A stretch of 32,000 bases of DNA from Nanobdella aerobiophila (GTDB lineage Archaea > Nanobdellota > Nanobdellia > Nanobdellales > Nanobdellaceae): assembly GCF_023169545.1 (NCBI RefSeq), contig NZ_AP019769.1, positions 600,001 to 632,000 of the forward strand, written 5' to 3'. This document shows, one piece after another, positions 3,400 through 32,000 of this stretch; positions within the stretch are counted from its first letter, which is position 1, and each line of letters starts with the position of its first letter. The translations under genes were made by a program, and so were the position numbers. The notes below the pieces were generated by a model. That model was not told the origin of the DNA. It worked only from the letters and a program-made list of their open reading frames with translations, and did not search any database.

Positions 3400-4061
3400 A
3401 TCTGGCAGTATTATATTCGGGTGGGAAAGATTCTAATTATTCATTATTTATAACTTCTAAATATTACAAGGTATCTGTATTATTAAATATTATTCCAAAA
3501 AATAATGAAAGTTATTTATATCAATATATAAATAACAAAATAACATTATTGCAGGCAAAAGCATTAAGTATAGATATATATAGAGCAGAAGTAAATGAAT
3601 CAGAAGAAAAAACATTAAAAGAAGCTTTAATATATCTAAAAAAAGAATATAATATTGATGGATTAGTAACTGGTGCAATAAGATCCACATACCAAGGATC
3701 TAAATTTCAAAAAATTTGTAAAGATTTAAAATTATGGTGCTTTAATCCTATATGGTTAATAAACGAAAAAATATATATTAAAGAATTAATAAAAAATAAT
3801 TTTGAATTTATAATTACGGGATGGTATTCTTACCCATTAGATATAGATATTTTAGGAAAAAAAGTCAATACATATATATTAAATAAACTAATAGAATATA
3901 ATAAAAAATATGGAATAAATATAGCTGGAGAAGGTGGGGAATATGAAACAATAGTACTATACCAACCACTATTTAAAAAAAGGATAAATATAGAAAAATA
4001 TAGGATAAATATAGAAAAAAATTATGCCGAATATATTATAGAAAAAGCTAGTCTGATATGA
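3396..4061 (+). CDS. dph6: Diphthine-ammonia ligase (Dph6 / MJ0570-PH1257 family PP-loop ATPase)
   Basis: It has the PP-loop LYSGGKDSNY at the N-terminus and the family-specific AGEGGEYET motif near the C-terminus. It is about 220 aa and collinear with my memory of archaeal MJ0570/PH1257-type proteins. Confidence 0.85.
   Translation: MNLAVLYSGGKDSNYSLFITSKYYKVSVLLNIIPKNNESYLYQYINNKITLLQAKALSIDIYRAEVNESEEKTLKEALIYLKKEYNIDGLVTGAIRSTYQGSKFQKICKDLKLWCFNPIWLINEKIYIKELIKNNFEFIITGWYSYPLDIDILGKKVNTYILNKLIEYNKKYGINIAGEGGEYETIVLYQPLFKKRINIEKYRINIEKNYAEYIIEKASLI
3981..4022 (+). repeat. In-frame 21-bp tandem duplication (2 copies, 1 mismatch) in the dph6 3' end
   Basis: aggataaatatagaaaaatat (3981-4001) is followed by aggataaatatagaaaaaaat (4002-4022). 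Together they encode RINIEKY/RINIEKN. Confidence 0.85.
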
Positions 4062-4582
4062 TAGGGGTAATATATACAAATAAATATAAATTGTCTAGAA
4101 GAGAATTTCTAAGACCTATATTATATATATTGAAAGAAAATAAAATTAAATATAAAATATTTTCATATAAAAAAATAGCTAATAATGTAGATAAAATAAT
4201 AATTACAGGAACTGCGATAATGGATTTTGATTATTTAAATTATATAGATAATTTTAAGTTTATAATAGAAAAAGATATAAAAACACTAGCAATATGTTCT
4301 GGATCACAAATTATAACAAAATTACTAGGTTATAAATTAATAAATAAAGAAATAATTGGAAAATATAATATAAATCTAGTAAATGAGAATATTTTTACAG
4401 ATAAAGATTTTGAAGCATATTTTTTAATAACTAAGGTACCCCAAATAGATAAAAAATTTAATATATATGGAAAACTAAACAATATCCCCGTATTTTACAA
4501 TTACAAAAATATATATTTTACATTATTTCATCCAGAAGTTTTAAATAAATATATTATATTAAAATTTCTATATAATATATAA
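4058..4582 (+). CDS. Class I glutamine amidotransferase-like protein (stand-alone GATase subunit)
   Basis: The nucleophile elbow is LAICSGSQ (compare GICxGxQ) and the C-terminal FHPEV supplies the His-Glu of the triad. It is 174 aa, similar in size to GuaA subunit A-type GATases. The start overlaps the dph6 stop (ATGA at 4058-4061). Confidence 0.7.
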   Translation: MIGVIYTNKYKLSRREFLRPILYILKENKIKYKIFSYKKIANNVDKIIITGTAIMDFDYLNYIDNFKFIIEKDIKTLAICSGSQIITKLLGYKLINKEIIGKYNINLVNENIFTDKDFEAYFLITKVPQIDKKFNIYGKLNNIPVFYNYKNIYFTLFHPEVLNKYIILKFLYNI

Positions 4583-4585
4583 TAT

Positions 4586-4638
4586 CCCTACCGAGGGTAA
4601 CCTTAGATTTATGAAAAGGTAGAGTTGGTGGGGGTACA
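4586..4638 (+). ncRNA. H/ACA box guide sRNA (single hairpin); predicted target is the 23S helix-69 loop U equivalent to E. coli U1917
   Basis: Lower stem: CCCUACC (4586-4592) with GGUGGGG (4627-4633). Pocket: GAGGGUA (4593-4599) opposite AGAGUU (4621-4626). Upper stem: ACCUU (4600-4604) with AAGGU (4616-4620). The apical loop AGAUUUAUGAA has facing GA/GA dinucleotides. The ACA box lies at 4636-4638, 15 nt from the pocket top. The pocket strands pair with 23S AACUC-UG-ACCCUC (complement of plus 30972-30984). Confidence 0.7.
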
Positions 4639-4693
4639 TAATGAAGATGCCATGTCCCAGTCTGATATATGATGAAAGGAGTAGCTACAGATA
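4639..4693 (+). ncRNA. Candidate C/D box sRNA directly abutting the H/ACA hairpin
   Basis: Box order is C AUGAAGA (4641-4647), 14 nt, D' CUGA (4662-4665), UAU, C' AUGAUGA (4669-4675), 12 nt, D CAGA (4688-4691), about 51 nt overall. The D-guide GGAGUAGCU (4678-4686) is perfectly complementary to 23S rRNA (plus-strand text ggagtagct, 30467-30475). The terminal boxes are non-canonical and the first spacer is long, so confidence is modest. Confidence 0.4.
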
Positions 4694-4739
4694 AAAATAT
4701 TAATAATTATTAAAACAAAATTAATTTAATATAAAAAAT

Positions 4740-6638
4740 TTATTCTTCTATCTTCTCTTTCTTATTTCCACCTCTTCCTCTTGATTCTAATAATACTGCA
4801 GCTATTATTATTATCGCAACTGCTACTAATATCCAAAATACTATCGATTCTAAATTATATGTAGGTGTTATTAATTGTTCTCCCGTCGAAGTATATGTTT
4901 GATTTAATGAATATAATATCTCTCCATTATTTGCATTTATTACATCTACATAAACTGTTACATTTCCAGATTCTGCTGTTACATTTAATGGTATTGTCTC
5001 TGAATATGTTCCACCTATTTGTACATTTTCTTCCTTTGGATATACTTTTCCACCTACTGCATATGATTGTATTATTAAATTATATATTGATGTTGTATTT
5101 GCTGTTAGTATCAGGTCTATTGTTGTATTCTGACCAACTGATAATGGTTGGTATGCTTCTAAAGATGCTGATATTGGAGTATATACAGGTACTGATCCAT
5201 TTACATATATATTATATGGATATACTTCTTGTGCTCCATTATACAAGAATACAATATTTAATGGATAATAACCTGCCTGTAGATTATTTGGTATATATAT
5301 TACCACTGGCAATTGCTCTACTTGATTTGGAGATAATGTAATTGTTGATAATTGCTGATTTATATTTAATTCTTCTGATTGTATCATTGGGGTTACCTGT
5401 ACTTCCATTGGCAAACTATCTTGTAATTGTATTTGCAATTGTACATATGATCCTGGTAGTATATTATATGTATTTGGTTCTACTGATATTACATTAACTG
5501 GATTTATTGAATTTTGATCTATTGCTACAGTATAATTATATTGATTTACTACAACTCCATTTTGATATAAATATAATATTATATTGTAATATCCTGGACT
5601 TAATTCTTCTGTATTTAATGGCAATGTTATCTCAGATTGTTGACCTGGTTGTACATCTTGTGAATTCATTAAATTATATTCTAGATATCCATATTCATTA
5701 TATAATAATAATTGTACTGTTGCATTTACAGTTTGATATCCTGAATTCTGTAATAATAAATTTATATCATATATTGAGTTTCCTAATGATTGCAATGAAT
5801 TAAAGTTTGGCGATATTGATAATACCTGTAAATTTTCTCCATTTTCATTATTCGATATATAGAATGATTGTTCTGCTACTTGGTTTAATACCTGACCATT
5901 ATCCAATACTACAGTTAATTGTTCTTCTGCATATAGTTGTCCATATATATTTTGTAGATCATAGTTTGGAACATTTATTGTCAATAAATTCTCTCCCGGC
6001 TGTAATTGTACATCTTCCTGTGTCTGATATACAATACTACCATCTTGACCATATAATGTCAGTGTCAATGTAGCTGATTGTATATTTGTCCCTATATTTT
6101 GTAGATAAGATACTGACTGTATATTTAATCCATTTTCAGATGCTTGTACTGATGATATTACTTCTGGTAAATTTACCATCGATAATGTAAAATTATATGG
6201 TACAAATGTAATATTATAACTTTCCTGACCTGTAGCTATATCTTCAACTCCATTAGAATATATTAATGATACATTTGCCTCTACTGTGAAATTATTGTAT
6301 CCATTAGAATATTCTTGAACTAACTGCTGTAATTGTAAAGGATTTACAGATATATCATATATATTTAATCCTGTTCCTACAGTTACTGGCTCATAATATT
6401 GATACACTAATTGTCCATTTGGTGCAAATATATCAAAATATAGGTATGATTCTACTGGTACCTGATTCACTCCTAATAACTTTACTATAAATGTCATATT
6501 ATTCATAGAATTTGCCAATAATGTCTGCGTCTGTGGTTCTATTATTATTTCCTGCGAATATACTGCTAATCCTACTATCCCTAATGCTCCTAAAACAAAA
6601 GAAAGCTTCTTAAGTGTTGTCACTAGTCGATTATTCAT
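4740..6638 (-). CDS. Large cell-surface protein (S-layer/adhesin candidate) with tandem CARDB-like beta-sandwich repeats and a C-terminal TM anchor
   Basis: The N-terminal signal/TM is LSFVLGALGIVGLAVYS. The C-terminal TM IVFWILVAVAIIIIAAVLL is followed by a basic tail, RGRGGNKKEK. About five roughly 100-aa modules rich in N/Q/Y/V show CARDB-like endings (for example GQQSEITLPLNTEELSPGYYNIILYLYQNG and GTYSETIPLNVTAESGNVTVYVDV). There are many N-x-S/T sequons. Confidence 0.7.
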   Translation of the reverse strand: MNNRLVTTLKKLSFVLGALGIVGLAVYSQEIIIEPQTQTLLANSMNNMTFIVKLLGVNQVPVESYLYFDIFAPNGQLVYQYYEPVTVGTGLNIYDISVNPLQLQQLVQEYSNGYNNFTVEANVSLIYSNGVEDIATGQESYNITFVPYNFTLSMVNLPEVISSVQASENGLNIQSVSYLQNIGTNIQSATLTLTLYGQDGSIVYQTQEDVQLQPGENLLTINVPNYDLQNIYGQLYAEEQLTVVLDNGQVLNQVAEQSFYISNNENGENLQVLSISPNFNSLQSLGNSIYDINLLLQNSGYQTVNATVQLLLYNEYGYLEYNLMNSQDVQPGQQSEITLPLNTEELSPGYYNIILYLYQNGVVVNQYNYTVAIDQNSINPVNVISVEPNTYNILPGSYVQLQIQLQDSLPMEVQVTPMIQSEELNINQQLSTITLSPNQVEQLPVVIYIPNNLQAGYYPLNIVFLYNGAQEVYPYNIYVNGSVPVYTPISASLEAYQPLSVGQNTTIDLILTANTTSIYNLIIQSYAVGGKVYPKEENVQIGGTYSETIPLNVTAESGNVTVYVDVINANNGEILYSLNQTYTSTGEQLITPTYNLESIVFWILVAVAIIIIAAVLLESRGRGGNKKEKIEE

Positions 6639-6643
6639 AAGTA

Positions 6644-7447
6644 TTATTTATTATAAAAAGACTTATAAACGTTACTACCCTTTAAAAGGTATAGATCACT
6701 ATCACCGGGCAAGTATATTATAATATCATTATGATCAATTTTAAAAATTTTACTTAATTCCTTGGCTATATCTAGTTGCTTTTTATTTCCAGGAACCACT
6801 ATTGCATAATTTTGATATTTTTTTGTTATTACTTCTGGAACTCCAGAAAAAATTTCGTAGTTATCAAAAGATAAAGCTATCTCTAGCTTAACATTCTTTA
6901 TATAATTTTTATTCCCATATATCATAAATGATCCTTTATTCAAATACTCTCCAGATGGTGCTTTCTTAGATACCTGATCTGGATATACATAGTATACATC
7001 TATTGAAGAAAACTTATTTTTCCAGGCTCTAGAATATGAAGCCACAAATTTTGCCGATTCATATATATCTTCTTCTCTGGCTTTTCTACCATTTTTTAAA
7101 ATACCAAAAGGAGAACCTGTAATCTCTGTATGAAAAACAATATCATTATCTTCGAGATATTTATTTATTATTATTTCATTTGTTATAGAATCTTTCCCGG
7201 CAATCAATAGAAAATCATTTGAAGTTTTTGTCCATCTGAATTTTTCATACCATTTTCTGTTTTTCTTCTTTTCTTCTTTCTTTTTCTCTATGACTATGTT
7301 TTCTTCAATATTATTTAATTTTTCATTATAATCCTTTATTATTTCCTCTATCTTTTTCTTCTTATCTTTTAAGACTTTTAATCTACTATAGATATCGTTT
7401 ATATTTTCATATATTGATTTCCTTCTATCAATTTTTATTTCCAACAT
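6644..7447 (-). CDS. NFACT-R (DUF814) domain protein; C-terminal half only of an Rqc2/NEMF/FbpA-type ribosome quality control factor
   Basis: A Lys/Glu coiled coil is followed by WYEKFRWTKTSNDFLLIAGKDSITNEIIINKYLEDNDIVFHTEITGSPFGIL, the DUF814/NFACT-R signature (GrnxxqNexl...d.wfH...GS). No NFACT-N or HhH region is present. Confidence 0.7.
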   Translation of the reverse strand: MLEIKIDRRKSIYENINDIYSRLKVLKDKKKKIEEIIKDYNEKLNNIEENIVIEKKKEEKKKNRKWYEKFRWTKTSNDFLLIAGKDSITNEIIINKYLEDNDIVFHTEITGSPFGILKNGRKAREEDIYESAKFVASYSRAWKNKFSSIDVYYVYPDQVSKKAPSGEYLNKGSFMIYGNKNYIKNVKLEIALSFDNYEIFSGVPEVITKKYQNYAIVVPGNKKQLDIAKELSKIFKIDHNDIIIYLPGDSDLYLLKGSNVYKSFYNK

Positions 7448-8247
7448 ATATTATAGAATAAACATTTTTTACATGCATCTTTATAGACCTTTCCAGGATC
7501 CTTTTTCTCTTCTATCATATTATATATCTTATCTTTGGTATATAGTATATTTTCTATTTCTTTTTTATTTGTGAACTCTATTTCTTTTTTATAATTATCT
7601 TTAGCATATAATAAGTATCCTTTATTTATCTTATACTTTGGATACTCATCCTTTAATAATAAGTAATATGCATAAAGCTGAGTGACATGTTCTCTCCTAT
7701 AAAATCCAGATTTTATTTCATAAGGTATCATTTCATCTTTATATATCTCTATTCTATCTACCCTACCAATTATATTATTTTTTAATGATGTAACATCTAT
7801 TTCTGTAACCAATTTTGGTTCTAGATTTTCCCATAATTCTATACCATATAAATCACTCTCCAATATAAAATTATATACATTTTTTGCCCTCTCTTCTATA
7901 TCTTTACTAACATAATTATATGATTTTATCTTTATCTTATTCTTATCCAATTTCAATTTCTGAATTTCTTCATCAAATTCCAATAGAATATCCTCAATTA
8001 ATTTATATGTAAATTGATTATATAAATTTAATATATATTCATAACCTTTATTTTCCTTTATACTATATATTATATCTTTTTCTTTATCATTTATCCTATC
8101 AAATATAGAATGAACAATAGATCCAAAAATCTTCTGTTCTGTACTTTCTTCTTCATAATGCATAACCCTTTTTAAATAAACCTTTCTAGGACAGAAATAA
8201 TAATCAGTAATATCTGTTACTCTAATAAATATATTATTTAATACCAC
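7435..8247 (-). CDS. Cas4-like PD-(D/E)xK nuclease with a 4-Cys cluster (DUF83/RecB-family exonuclease); stand-alone
   Basis: The N-terminal Cys lies in YYFCPRKVYL. Other motifs are GSIVHSIF, GRVDRIEI (D), PYEIKSG (ExK) and QLYAYYLLL (QxxxY). The C-terminal cluster is CKKCLFYNIC (C-x2-C-x5-C). The stop region overlaps the NFACT-R start by 13 nt. Confidence 0.8.
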   Translation of the reverse strand: MVLNNIFIRVTDITDYYFCPRKVYLKRVMHYEEESTEQKIFGSIVHSIFDRINDKEKDIIYSIKENKGYEYILNLYNQFTYKLIEDILLEFDEEIQKLKLDKNKIKIKSYNYVSKDIEERAKNVYNFILESDLYGIELWENLEPKLVTEIDVTSLKNNIIGRVDRIEIYKDEMIPYEIKSGFYRREHVTQLYAYYLLLKDEYPKYKINKGYLLYAKDNYKKEIEFTNKKEIENILYTKDKIYNMIEEKKDPGKVYKDACKKCLFYNICWK

Positions 8248-11897: not shown

Positions 11898-12500
11898 ATG
11901 ATATTATTACCCGGAGATAAGTTAAATAATAAAAATATATATAGTTATGATATAAATGATGAGTTTTTTTCTAAATATATATTATTATCAAATGATAATA
12001 TAAAGTATAATAAAATATTTGGATATTATATACCAAAAATAGGAGATGTAGTTATATCAAAAGTAATAGATGTGTTAAGCAATGGATGGTTGCTAGATAT
12101 AAATTCTCCATACCTAGGATTCCTACAATTAAAAAATGTTGTACAAAAGGATATAGACCATAATAAAATATATACATATGGAGATTATATATTAACAGAA
12201 ATTACAAAGATAACTAAAAACATGATGATTAATTTAAACTTAAAAAATAGGAAAAAACTAAATAATGGATTAATTATAAGTATAGATCCGATAAAATTAC
12301 CAAGACTAATAGGTAAAAACTCTTCAATGATAAATATGATAAAGGAAAAATTAAATATAAAAATTATAACCGGAAAAAATGGTAGATTATACTTATCGGG
12401 TGATTATGCAAACATAATAAAAGCTTATAATGTAATTAAATTTATTATGAAAAATTCATATAAAAAAGGCCTAACAGAAAAGATAAATGAAATTATATAA
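11898..12500 (+). CDS. rrp4: Exosome RNA-binding subunit Rrp4 (S1 + KH domains)
   Basis: The S1 segment is PKIGDVVISKVIDVLSNGWLLDINSPYLGFL. The KH segment is LPRLIGKNSSMINMIKEKLNIKIITGKNGRLYLSG. It lies immediately upstream of, and overlaps, rrp41, as in archaeal exosome operons. Confidence 0.8.
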   Translation: MILLPGDKLNNKNIYSYDINDEFFSKYILLSNDNIKYNKIFGYYIPKIGDVVISKVIDVLSNGWLLDINSPYLGFLQLKNVVQKDIDHNKIYTYGDYILTEITKITKNMMINLNLKNRKKLNNGLIISIDPIKLPRLIGKNSSMINMIKEKLNIKIITGKNGRLYLSGDYANIIKAYNVIKFIMKNSYKKGLTEKINEII

Positions 12501-13249
12501 TGTCAAGGTTTGACGGAAGAAAAGAAGATGAATTAAGAAATATATATATAGAATTAAATCCGATAGAAAATGCAAAAGGTTCTGCAATATTTGCTTTTGG
12601 AGAAACAAGAGTATTGGCTGCCGTGTATGGTCCTAGAGGGTCTAAAATGTCAAAAGATTATGATAGAGCATTTTTAAGAGTAAAATATAATATGATTACA
12701 TTTTCTGTACCTGAAAGAAAAAAACCAACTCCAGGTAGAAGAGAAATAGAAGTATCTGAAGTTATTAAAAGAGCAATAGAACCTGCATTATTATTAGAAG
12801 AATTACCAGGAAGCATAATAGATGTATATATAGAAGTATTAAATGCAAATGCTGGTACTAGAACTGCGAGTATTAATGCAGTATCATTAGCTTTATCTTT
12901 AGCAGGTATACCAATGAGAGATTTGGTTAGTTCAGTTGCTGTAGGAAAGGTTGGACAAAAAATATTAGTTGATCTAAATAAAGATGAAGAAGACTATAAT
13001 TCGGAAAAATTAAAGGATATAGAAGAAAAAAGGAAATTTATAGAATTTTATGGAGAAGGAAGAGCTACAGATATACCAATAGCATATTTACCATACAAAA
13101 ATGAAATTTCGTTAATCCAATTAGATGGTGAAATAAATAATAATGAATTAAAAGATGCAATAAATCTAGGAATTAAGTCTTGCAAAAATATAAAAAACCT
13201 CATGAAAGACAAGATATTAGAATACTTTTCCGATACCAACATAAGGTAA
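12500..13249 (+). CDS. rrp41: Exosome RNase PH subunit Rrp41
   Basis: RNase PH motifs are present: RFDGRKEDELR, GSAIFAFGETRVLAAVYGPR, NAGTRTASINAVSLALSLAGIPMRDLV and LIQLDGE. Confidence 0.9.
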   Translation: MSRFDGRKEDELRNIYIELNPIENAKGSAIFAFGETRVLAAVYGPRGSKMSKDYDRAFLRVKYNMITFSVPERKKPTPGRREIEVSEVIKRAIEPALLLEELPGSIIDVYIEVLNANAGTRTASINAVSLALSLAGIPMRDLVSSVAVGKVGQKILVDLNKDEEDYNSEKLKDIEEKRKFIEFYGEGRATDIPIAYLPYKNEISLIQLDGEINNNELKDAINLGIKSCKNIKNLMKDKILEYFSDTNIR

Positions 13250-21008: not shown

Positions 21009-21055
21009 AGCGGTCATACTTCTTGGGTTAAAGCCCACGGTGGTGATCCACCGAA

Positions 21056-22536
<1,481 letters not shown>

Positions 22537-22543
22537 TAGTTAA

Positions 22544-24316: not shown

Positions 24317-24727
24317 ATGTCTGAATTCATGCTAAGAGGATATAAAATTGATGAATTAAGAAATATGTCCATTAAAGAATTTGCTGAGAAAGTTGCAGAT
24401 AGTAGAGTAAGAAGAACATTATTAAGAAGATTAAAATTGGGTTTTCCAGTAGAATGGGAGAACTTTTACAGAAAATGCTATTTACAAAAAGAAGGTAAAT
24501 ATAAGAAAACTGTTAGAACACACGCAAGAGAAATAATAATATTACCATTTATGCTAGGAACAAGAATAGGCGTACATAATGGAAAAGAATTTGTAGAATT
24601 AGAAATAAAAGAAAATATGATAGGAAGAAGAGTGGGAGAATTCGTATTTACAACAAAGAAAGTTCAACATTCCAATCCAGGTATTGGTGCTTCTAAATCT
24701 TCTAGATTTATGAAAGCTAAAAAGTAA
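24317..24727 (+). CDS. rps19: Ribosomal protein S19 (uS19)
   Basis: Contains VRTHAREIIILPFMLGTRIGVHNGKEFVELEIKENMIGRRVGEFVFTTKKVQHSNPGIGASKSSRF, the classic uS19 core (RTH.R..II.P.M.G..IGV.NGK.F..V.I...MIG..LGEF). Confidence 0.92.
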   Translation: MSEFMLRGYKIDELRNMSIKEFAEKVADSRVRRTLLRRLKLGFPVEWENFYRKCYLQKEGKYKKTVRTHAREIIILPFMLGTRIGVHNGKEFVELEIKENMIGRRVGEFVFTTKKVQHSNPGIGASKSSRFMKAKK

Positions 24728-30017: not shown

Positions 30018-32000
30018 GGGTTCGAGTAGATTATATAGCTTCACGGGATATTCAGATAGTCAGCTGAACTCCTTTACGGAGCTTACACTGCTATCTTAAC
30101 GGATCTTCTATCCGAGCCCTTAATGGCTGTCTATTTTCAAGGAAGGCTTCACCCTTAGATGCTTTCAGGGCTTATCCTTCAGGGTGTGGCTACCGGGCCT
30201 GCCCTTTTCGGACAACCCGTAAACTAGAGACCCCGATCCACCGTTCCTTTCGTACTAGGTGGACCTTTCCCTCAGACAGCCGACACTTCCGACAGTTATA
30301 ACCGAGCTGCCTCGCGGCGCTCTAAACCCATCTCACGATCTCCTTTAATGGGTGGGCACCCCCACCCTTGGCGGCTTCTGCACCACCAGGATGGAGAGAG
30401 ACGACATCGATGTCGCAAACCGCGGGGTCAATAGGGGCTCTCGCCCGCGACGGCGCTGTTACCCCCGGAGTAGCTTTTTCGCCAGCCCATACCCCCACCA
30501 AAGGGAGTATGGGGTTCGCTAGGCCCAGGTTTCCCTCCTGTATCCCTTGATGGTCAGGATACAGCCAGGCTAGCTTTTGGCCTTGTCCTCTACAGCGGAT
30601 TTCTAACCCGCTTGAGCTAACCATATGGACCCTGCCGATATCTTTTCGGCAAGGTGCCGCCCCAGCCAAACTGTCCACCTGCTGATGTTCCCTTTCGGGT
30701 CAGCCTTAAAAGATTTGGAGGTGGGTGTTTCATCGTCGCATCTTTCTTACCTAGCGGCAAGAATTCATAGCTCCCCACTACACTACACACCAAATCTTTC
30801 AAGGCAACAGCAAGCTACAGTTAAGCTTCACGGGGTCTTTTTTACCCATCGGAAGTCCCTGGCTTTCTCACCAGGATGGCTTTTCAGGAGGTACCAGCCC
30901 GGGACAGTGGCGGACTAGTTACGTCGTTCGCAAAGCCGGCAATTAACCGGCAAGGCATTACGCTACCTTAAGAGGGTCAGAGTTACCCCCGCCGTTTACC
31001 GGTCCTTAGCTCCCTTGAACGGGAGGTTCAGATACCGACACTGAGCAGACGTCACCCCCAGTACACATCCTTTCGGACTAGCTGGGAGCTATGTCTTTAA
31101 TAAACAGTCCGCCCGCCCTTGTAACTGCGACCTGCAGTACTATGTACCGCAGGCATCCCTTATCCCAAAGTTACGGGACCATTTTGCCGAGTTCCCTGGA
31201 CTGGTTTAACCTCACGGCCTTAGGCTGTTCACCCAGAGGACCAATACTGGATTGCGGTACGATCGTTCGGAATCGCATCTTTTTCCTTTTCATTGCTAGA
31301 AGGCCTCGGCAGAACCTTTCGGCCCGTCAGGATTTAAGCTGGTTCTCATCATGACGATACTCCCCAGCTTTATCTCCCTTAGTATGATAGGTAGATTTTA
31401 CTCTACCCTCATATCTGCCTAGCCCTCTAGGTCGGAAAAAGAAGTTGCGTCACCGCATCTATCCGAACGGTAGAGGAATATTAACCTCTTTCCCTTTCTC
31501 CGAATCCCTCTCGGGAATCGGATTAGGATCGACTAACCCCAAGCTGATCTTCATAGCTTGGGAAACCTTTCCCCCTTCGGCCAATAGGATTCTCACCTAT
31601 CTCATTCTTACTACCGCAGAGATCTTCATTCTCAACGGCTCCAGGTTTCCTTTCAGAAACCCTTCTAGGCCATTGAGACGCCCACCTACCTCACGCCGGA
31701 CAATGTCCAGCGGACTAAGGTCTCGGCAGCCAACTTAGACCCGTCCGTTTGCGGAGCCTATCTCCTCGCCAGGTGAGTTGTTACACACTCCTTAGATGAT
31801 AGCCACTATTGGGCCCACATCCCTGGTGTCTTAGGAAATAGACTCCTTCTAAATCTATTAGCTGGCATTTTGGGGCCTTAACCTTAGTCTCGGTTGTTCC
31901 CGTCTCGGAATTGCGGATTTCCCGCAATCCCCTGCTCCCAGATAAAGGACCTTACAGCTTCGGAGTTGGACTCTATATGGGAATCCCATATAAAATCCGT
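30018..32000 (-). rRNA. rrl: 23S ribosomal RNA, 3' roughly two-thirds (5' part lies beyond the window end)
   Basis: The reverse complement contains CCUGAAAGCAUCUAAG (near the 3' end), the sarcin-ricin loop AGUACGAAAGGAAC, the PTC strand GGGGGUAACAGCG, GACAUCGAUGUCG, and H69-H71 GGUAAACGGCGGGGGUAACUCUGACCCUCUUAAGGUAGCG. It is GC-rich. The 3' end is approximate to about 15 nt. Confidence 0.95.

Follow-up and report, generated by a model that had tools for sequence, protein, structure and literature searches.

The 32-kb window of the Nanobdella aerobiophila genome analysed here (the whole stretch of 32,000 nucleotides (nt), from whose first letter all coordinates are counted) consists of about 78% A+T, with a G+C content of about 25% away from its ribosomal RNA (rRNA) genes. 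One intergenic region of this window (4583-4739) contains two guide RNA modules placed head to tail, an H/ACA guide RNA hairpin (4584..4638, + strand) and, 2 nt further downstream, a box C/D small RNA (sRNA; 4641-4691). Both modules are laid out in full, are conserved in related archaea and are complementary to three sites of the 23S rRNA, U1917, G2251 and U2438 in E. coli numbering, all of which lie in domains IV and V within the part of the 23S rRNA gene present in the window. We consider it likely that the modules represent a co-transcribed pair of functional guides in one small transcription unit. What is new is the tandem H/ACA-C/D arrangement, the presence of an H/ACA guide for helix 69 in this lineage, and the finding that the C/D sRNA belongs to a family that crosses phyla, while the individual guides are ordinary and largely catalogued in Nanoarchaeum equitans.

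The H/ACA module was delimited by its minimum free energy fold, by covariation and by comparison of five loci. Its lower stem of 9 base pairs (bp; 4584-4592 with 4627-4635) opens into a pocket with a 5' strand of 7 nt (4593-4599) and a 3' strand of 6 nt (4621-4626), above which an upper stem of 5 bp (4600-4604 with 4616-4620) carries a kink-loop (K-loop; 4605-4615) of the form AGA...UGAA with tandem G.A/A.G pairs plus an A.A, and the ACA box (4636-4638) lies immediately 3' of the lower stem, all on the + strand. Across five sequences the first nucleotide of the K-loop is A, G or C, and the GA...UGA core is fixed. The upper stem is separated from the ACA box by 15 nt (4621-4635), which is within the expected 14-16 nt and close to the x/5-6/9 geometry described for the H/ACA pocket (PMC4652768). 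Covariation is seen in three sequences, in which all 14 pairs of the hairpin are Watson-Crick or wobble pairs, with one compensatory and three one-sided changes.

The pocket strands GAGGGU and GAGUU pair with the 23S rRNA sequence 5'-AACUC-UG-ACCCUC-3' (30972..30984, - strand), forming 5 + 6 = 11 Watson-Crick bp, and alignment of the window 23S rRNA to that of E. coli identifies the unpaired U of this predicted target (window 30979) as U1917 in the loop of helix 69. Pseudouridine at U1917 is among the most widely conserved rRNA pseudouridines. The match at U1917 is the single best one in the 16S and available 23S rRNA, and only 0.5% of shuffled pockets equal it (p ~0.005). Judged by its anatomy and its pocket, the upstream hairpin is a genuine, well-formed archaeal single-hairpin H/ACA guide.

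A covariance model of the H/ACA module, searched over 25 sources (the window and 24 loci, 193 kb), recovered the window copy and one weak match only, and located no H/ACA RNA in those sources where the C/D module stands alone. The weak match (L037:5862-5928; E = 0.72) has similar pocket strands (AAGGAUA and AAAGUU), contains AUA in place of ACA and lies about 2 kb away from the C/D sRNA of the same contig. Within the window, 15 nt in the 3' end of the gene for ribosomal protein S19 (rps19; 24702-24716, CUAGAUUUAUGAAAG) match the K-loop region of the model, 13 nt of which (UAGAUUUAUGAAA) are identical to the window K-loop; lying inside coding sequence, this match was set aside as probably due to chance. 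Homology of the hairpin to the H/ACA RNA of N. equitans was rejected on reading the sequence of the latter, and the AUGAAGA downstream of that RNA is the start of an open reading frame (ORF) and not a C box.

The C/D module shows the order C-D'-C'-D and spans 51 nt from C box to D box. It consists of a C box AUGAAGA (4641..4647), a D' guide of 14 nt (UGCCAUGUCCCAGU; 4648..4661), a D' box CUGA (4662..4665), a D'-C' spacer UAU (4666-4668), a C' box AUGAUGA (4669..4675), a D guide of 12 nt (AAGGAGUAGCUA; 4676..4687) and a D box CAGA (4688..4691), all on the + strand. An earlier reading of this DNA, made from its letters without database searches and referred to below as the sequence-only reading, had described a C/D sRNA-like element with these boxes and spacings, every element of which was re-found exactly. 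A relaxed C/D'/C'/D pattern has one match in the window, at this site; 300 Markov simulations of a 32-kb sequence, searched on both strands, gave none, which places the box arrangement far beyond chance. The comparison of orthologous spacers that had been suggested as a check was run and found the boxes conserved in the relatives, five composite loci in all counting the window. Boxes and guides are kept in the four further composite loci, which are of Nanopusillaceae type, in several stand-alone nanoarchaeal copies and in more than 30 copies from other phyla. On these comparisons, the C/D element is a genuine archaeal methylation guide, conserved in relatives and across archaeal phyla, and what had been an sRNA-like element can be regarded as a real sRNA. 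The exact 52-nt sRNA sequence had no match in the genome collection, which does not include the source genome.

The D' guide of this sRNA is complementary to the P-loop of the 23S rRNA. The P-loop strand 5'-GCUGGGGCGG-3' pairs with the conserved D' guide, and after alignment of the window 23S rRNA to E. coli rrlH the N+5 position of the predicted target (GCUGGGGCGGCA; 30655..30666, - strand) falls on the G at window 30662, which corresponds to E. coli G2251. The duplex contains 9 contiguous bp and, with the guide-side AU (2 nt) bulged out, 12 bp at -19.0 kcal/mol, which is comparable to the relatives. Many archaeal phyla share the core of the guide (GUCCCAGU, its 3' part), which recurs in 42 distinct sRNAs. 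Of the seven archaea considered by Dennis et al. (2015; PMC4644070), three have a predicted methylation of G2251. The sequence-only reading had proposed to look for a target of this guide in the missing 5' third of the 23S rRNA and in transfer RNAs (tRNAs); a target does exist, but it is located inside the window. Two other candidates were considered. A pairing site at E. coli 2414, in E. coli numbering 24 nt away from the target of the D guide, is no stronger than others and uses a non-conserved part of the guide, and was rejected in favour of G2251, while a tRNA anticodon-loop target via ACUGGGAC was dropped, as the window contains no tRNA genes and the P-loop accounts for the conservation.

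The D guide forms 9 Watson-Crick bp with the 23S rRNA. Its segment GGAGTAGCT at 4678-4686 is identical to the plus strand at 30467-30475 and, the 23S rRNA gene being on the minus strand, complementary to that rRNA, in which the predicted target (AGCUACUCC; 30467..30475, - strand; E. coli 2435-2443) contains the N+5 nucleotide at window 30472, equivalent to E. coli U2438. Both the 9-mer identity and the E. coli numbering had been put forward before; the identity was found again and the alignment to E. coli rrlH agrees with the numbering. The duplex formed by this guide (GGAGUAGCU) has a predicted energy of -16.7 kcal/mol, and the guide is the commonest partner in the family, with homologous xxGUARCU D guides in the same register as GGAGUAGCUA of the window in 27 of the 42 members. 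The D guide is accepted as real on account of these comparative data and not of the 9-bp match itself. An alternative D guide of the relatives, GAGAGACGA, matches the window 23S rRNA over 10-11 bp near E. coli 2509 (shuffle p ~0.003), and the window retains a perfect target for it (GUCGUCUCUC; 30395-30403 on the + strand, lsu index 1598-1606). No second copy of GAGAGACGA was found outside the rRNA gene in the 32-kb window, whose sRNA has a different D guide, and such a guide may be encoded elsewhere in the N. aerobiophila genome.

The wider family of this sRNA was collected by searching metagenome and genome collections for the pattern GTCCCAGT-CTGA-N(2-6)-TGATGA, which yielded 42 distinct sRNAs with complete box sets. 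The records are labelled Micrarchaeota, Altiarchaeales, Iainarchaeota, Undinarchaeota and Nanoarchaeota, and furthermore Nitrososphaerota, Bathyarchaeia and Crenarchaeota as well as Njordarchaeota and Heimdallarchaeota. By these labels, the C/D family extends over DPANN, Thermoproteota and Asgard archaea; its members share the D' guide, and most of them the D guide as well. Minority D guides occur in six members each (GAGACGAU or GGGCGAU in one set, AAGACAGU in the other), which matches the mixing of partner guides described for archaeal C/D sRNAs in the review of Breuer et al. Several records deserve separate mention. A contig labelled Candidatus Kaiserbacteria bacterium (L143) encodes at 4264-4312 a complete archaeal C/D sRNA that differs from that of L081 only in its 3-nt D'-C' spacer and is preceded by 75 identical nt, and is probably a mis-binned archaeal contig. 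A match labelled Planctomycetota (L148) is without a C box and looks like chance. In stand-alone nanoarchaeal copies (L133, L155/L055 and L139/L151) the P-loop D' guide is kept, but the D spacers are nearly pure A/U and probably no longer guiding; L139 and L151 moreover have AUGUAGA where the C box should be, a change expected to disrupt one of the G.A pairs.

The terminal boxes of the window sRNA deviate from the consensus at one position each, the C box having A for U at position 5 and the D box A for U at position 2. Both GA dinucleotides that form the G.A pairs of the terminal kink-turn (k-turn) are intact, and the change affects only the position after the two G.A pairs, where U.U becomes A.A. 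Among the 42 family members, the combination of C-box position 5 and D-box position 2 is U/U in 31, A/A in 4, G/U in 4, C/U in 2 and A/U in 1. The CAGA D box occurs only alongside a C box with A at position 5, in four of the 42 members and in sR14, sR16, sR17 and sR19 of N. equitans (of which sR14, sR17 and sR19 share the C-box variant of the window), and never with U, G or C at that position, which bears out the earlier suggestion that the two substitutions are a paired change; the cases of coupled change come from nanoarchaea only and are not independent of one another. In the four other composite loci, AUGAGGA is combined with CUGA, corresponding to a G.U pairing. Variant terminal boxes are not unique to this locus and recur in Nanoarchaeota. 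According to McPhee et al. (2014), metal ions alone fold a k-turn only if, at this pair, either the D box contributes a G or the C box contributes a C, not both. A.A and G.U have neither of these features and should depend on L7Ae as U.U does, which would fit box C/D behaviour. The locus documents an A.A form of the box C/D k-turn that is natural and recurs, with sister lineages having G.U, and offers a test case for the published folding rules.

Orthologous loci were obtained via the upstream protein. In addition to the window, composite loci are present in the KM4331-08 metagenome-assembled genome (MAG; L002), in strain YN1 (L003), in a JGI contig (L164) and in an ENA contig (L165). The junction GGGGTACATAATGA (GGGGUACA-UA-AUGA) is invariant in all five of them. 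Conservation extends to the boxes and to the D' guide in its 3' part, but not to the flanks, to the D'-C' spacer or to the D guide, which differ between loci. The linker UA between the ACA and C boxes (4639..4640, + strand) could pair with a second UA (4692-4693) and so close the C/D k-turn with a minimal terminal stem. Since the 2-nt spacing leaves no room for a second promoter, the C/D module is almost certainly co-transcribed with the H/ACA module. Stand-alone C/D modules occur in L005, in Nanopusillus sp. (L055/L155), in Nanoclepta minutus (L133; 4297-4345) and in two Nanopusillaceae MAGs (L139/L151), and the module stands alone in every other phylum of the family. This distribution in other nanoarchaea and in other phyla indicates that the fusion is a derived feature of one subclade, and that the C/D RNA is independent of the fusion. 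In L005 (835-985), the same GATase gene is followed by two tandem C/D sRNAs without an H/ACA hairpin, both with AUGAAGA and CAGA boxes, the first combining the P-loop D' guide with an unrelated D guide (AACAACGAUGAG) and the second an A/U-only D' spacer with the GAGAGACGA D guide.

The sRNA locus is flanked by a GATase-like ORF on its 5' side (4058-4582, + strand) and by a convergent ORF of 632 amino acids on its 3' side (4740-6638, - strand), and homologues of the flanking proteins carry the names Nanopusillaceae archaeon and Nanoarchaeota archaeon YN1. About 20-30 nt 5' of the start of the H/ACA hairpin, the letters TTATATTAAAA (4554..4564, + strand) read as a possible TATA-like promoter element, and the relatives have A/T-rich TATA-like blocks at a similar distance upstream of the hairpin. 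Genes for an NFACT RNA-binding protein (6644-7447) and a Cas4-like nuclease (7435-8247) are located shortly downstream, with the same gene order in relatives. Furthermore, adjacent genes with Rrp4-type S1/KH and RNase PH domains (11898-13249, + strand) encode exosome-like subunits; the exosome is a 3'-to-5' exonuclease and could trim sRNA precursors. The archaeal 16S rRNA gene (21055-22543, + strand) and the 3' two-thirds of the 23S rRNA gene (30031-32000, - strand) are unlinked and on opposite strands, with about 7.5 kb between them that encode a TGT-family tRNA-ribosyltransferase, ribosomal protein S19, a cytochrome-b-like protein, and a secretion/pilus-type ATPase together with membrane proteins. 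The entire 32-kb window was found to contain no tRNA genes.

In the mechanism that we propose, one transcript would carry both modules, ribonucleoproteins (RNPs) would assemble on each, and modifications at the three sites would follow. Cbf5-Nop10-Gar1 would bind the hairpin and the ACA box, with the upper stem capped by an L7Ae-type K-loop, and the pocket would direct Cbf5 to U1917 in the helix 69 loop for conversion to pseudouridine. Nop5-fibrillarin would occupy the C/D part, where the D' guide is predicted to direct fibrillarin to G2251 in the P-loop, giving Gm2251, and the D guide to U2438 beside the peptidyl-transferase strand, giving Um2438. L7Ae would be bound at three sites, namely the H/ACA K-loop, the C/D k-turn and the C'/D' motif, and the A.A variant of the terminal k-turn would still need L7Ae to fold.

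With respect to the joined arrangement, we lean slightly towards two independent guides brought together by compaction of a reduced genome, rather than towards a new kind of RNP. The strongest competitor is a true composite, in which an H/ACA-C/D RNA of about 108 nt is left uncleaved and holds at once an RNP of Cbf5-Nop10-Gar1-L7Ae and one of L7Ae-Nop5-fibrillarin, forming one bifunctional particle that would dock on a single nascent 23S rRNA at helix 69, at the P-loop and around U2438 in the 5' strand of the peptidyl-transferase loop. Although insertions and deletions have occurred in the H/ACA loop, in the D' guide and in the spacer between D' and C', the five loci all have the same 2-nt junction, such a short linker would be hard for nucleases to reach under the published maturation model of RNP protection and end trimming, and the three predicted targets share the same two domains of one rRNA. 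We nevertheless regard a persistent composite as doubtful, given that the closest other lineages (L005, Nanopusillus sp., Nanoclepta, and the GMQS and DRC MAGs) and all other phyla have the C/D module on its own, that the linker UA is also the sole candidate for the terminal stem of the k-turn, where Cbf5-PUA on the ACA box may clash with L7Ae/Nop5, and that the five related loci are a small and non-independent sample of DNA sequences.

A further alternative is that only one module is functional and the other a decaying remnant, for example a dying C/D gene on an H/ACA transcript or the reverse. The off-consensus terminal boxes and the 2-nt insertion in the window D' spacer would agree with such decay, as would the state of some nanoarchaeal relatives, which have the apparently dead, A/U-only D guides (L055/L155 and L133) or the broken C box (L139/L151) mentioned above. 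The same variant boxes are, however, found in abundant sRNAs of N. equitans, both C/D guides still pair strongly with rRNA (-19.0 and -16.7 kcal/mol), five composite loci have retained the boxes and the D' guide in spite of diverged flanks, and the H/ACA module retains perfect stems and its 11-bp target match, which together make the loss of either module very unlikely. A chance resemblance in A/T-rich intergenic DNA that holds no RNA gene, for which the abundance of UGA-like words in such DNA and the lack of an Rfam family at threshold could be cited, is effectively refuted by the simulations and by the conservation in relatives and other phyla with matching guides.

The reading of the locus as a co-transcribed pair of functional guides has to be weighed against several observations. 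For N. aerobiophila it rests on sequence, with the abundant N. equitans homologues serving as a proxy for expression. The covariation of the H/ACA hairpin comes from few, closely related sequences, Rfam H/ACA families gave no match to it even at E up to 10, and comparison of the sequences showed it not to be homologous to the single known H/ACA RNA of N. equitans; the missing family match affects the naming of a family and not the assignment to the H/ACA class. Neither C/D guide stands out in shuffling tests. The D' match to the 23S rRNA is not individually significant, and full pairing of its 14-nt spacer requires a bulge of 2 nt, the extra AU; all relatives have a D' spacer of 12 nt, which is also the length of the D spacer in the window. 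For the D guide, 7.5% of shuffled guides score as well as its 9-bp match, which is thus not individually significant and taken alone only suggestive; the chance estimate of about 0.05 made earlier for this 9-mer was close to that value. A promoter role for TTATATTAAAA is weakly indicated in DNA of such A+T content, and no genes for sRNP core proteins are present within the 32-kb window.

Taking the locus as a pair of functional guides, a reduced nanoarchaeal genome would have kept guides for two highly conserved large-subunit modifications, pseudouridine 1917 and Gm2251, packed into a unit of about 110 nt. A previously orphan D' guide is given a target, and the C/D sRNA is placed in a family of DPANN, Thermoproteota and Asgard archaea. 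Should the RNA stay joined, it would be the first prokaryotic or archaeal dual-class guide RNA, a tandem counterpart of the eukaryotic small Cajal body-specific RNAs (scaRNAs), which would tether U1917, G2251 and U2438 of one nascent 23S rRNA and couple three modifications near the catalytic centre. This would bear on the origin of composite guide RNAs and on guide RNPs as tethered chaperones in ribosome assembly. A member of this clade is probably in culture, which would make a test practical.

The closest published counterparts of the C/D module are two sRNAs of N. equitans. The sRNA sR14 (GCTATATGAAGAGAAAGCACAATCTGAATAGTGATGAAAGGAGTAGCTGCAGAT) shares with the window copy its AUGAAGA and CAGA boxes and its D-guide core (AAGGAGUAGCU) and is verified by RNA-seq with 29,900 reads; Dennis et al. 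(2015; PMC4644070) predict its D target at 23S U2712, in a consensus numbering that gives E. coli G2251 as G2520. The second, sRNA4 (GGCUGUCCCAGG; Randau, 2012; PMC3491384), contains the same P-loop guide (GCUGUCCCAGG) with the published predicted target GCUGGmGGCGGCA, and both are abundant in RNA-seq (PMC3491384; PMC4644070). In N. equitans the two guides are thus found on separate sRNAs at different loci, neither of which has been reported beside an H/ACA RNA, whereas in the window they are the D' and D guides of one sRNA, an arrangement shared with many DPANN, Thermoproteota and Asgard sequences.

The P-loop guide CCGUCCCAGU defines a family that includes the published Thermoproteus and Pyrobaculum sRNAs Tte sR107 and Pca sR36, with the same N+5 target G2251, the same box order and usually the partner xxGUAGCU. 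The Thermoproteales examples carry this guide in the D position and not in D'. Most members have canonical boxes and 12-nt spacers and stand alone, in contrast to the window copy with its 14-nt D' spacer, its variant terminal boxes and its position after an H/ACA hairpin. Outside the archaea, yeast snR67 guides Gm2619 of the 25S rRNA, the equivalent of E. coli G2251, and has Um2724 as a second target. The target nucleotide in the P-loop is the same, but there is no detectable homology beyond guide and boxes, and the second target differs. An Rfam search of the locus returned nothing at the gathering score and only weak sub-threshold C/D-box hits, of which snR67 was listed first with 16.4 bits, far below its gathering score of 55.

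Known archaeal units of comparable organization include tRNA-C/D dicistrons in N. equitans, I. hospitalis and T. tenax, C/D sRNAs embedded in messenger RNAs, and Pyrobaculum C/D-C/D clusters with 10 nt spacing or 4-nt overlap. According to a review, maturation of archaeal C/D sRNAs commonly starts from a longer or polycistronic precursor and depends on nothing more than the box motifs. As in such polycistronic units, a promoterless C/D sRNA directly follows another stable RNA on its 3' side in the window, with a spacer of 2 nt, no space for an internal promoter and a junction conserved in five of five loci. The upstream partner differs in being an H/ACA guide, without a tRNA-like structure that could recruit RNase Z. 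The searchable literature yielded no description of an archaeal H/ACA-C/D composite or tandem, in line with the sequence-only reading, which knew of no contiguous unit of this kind in archaea.

The same reading had labelled the locus a possible composite, scaRNA-like guide. The C/D element does abut a genuine H/ACA hairpin, but the label itself misfits. In U85-type scaRNAs, reportedly characterized by Jady and Kiss in 2001, the composite C/D-H/ACA RNA is said to have its H/ACA domain nested between the C/D termini. Eukaryotic scaRNAs combine methylation and pseudouridylation domains in one RNA, as this locus does in one place and possibly in one RNA. They have small nuclear RNA targets, Cajal-body signals and a nested H/ACA domain, whereas the modules of the window have predicted targets in 23S rRNA only and follow each other in tandem, H/ACA first and then C/D. 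The N. aerobiophila locus is not a member of the eukaryotic scaRNA class.

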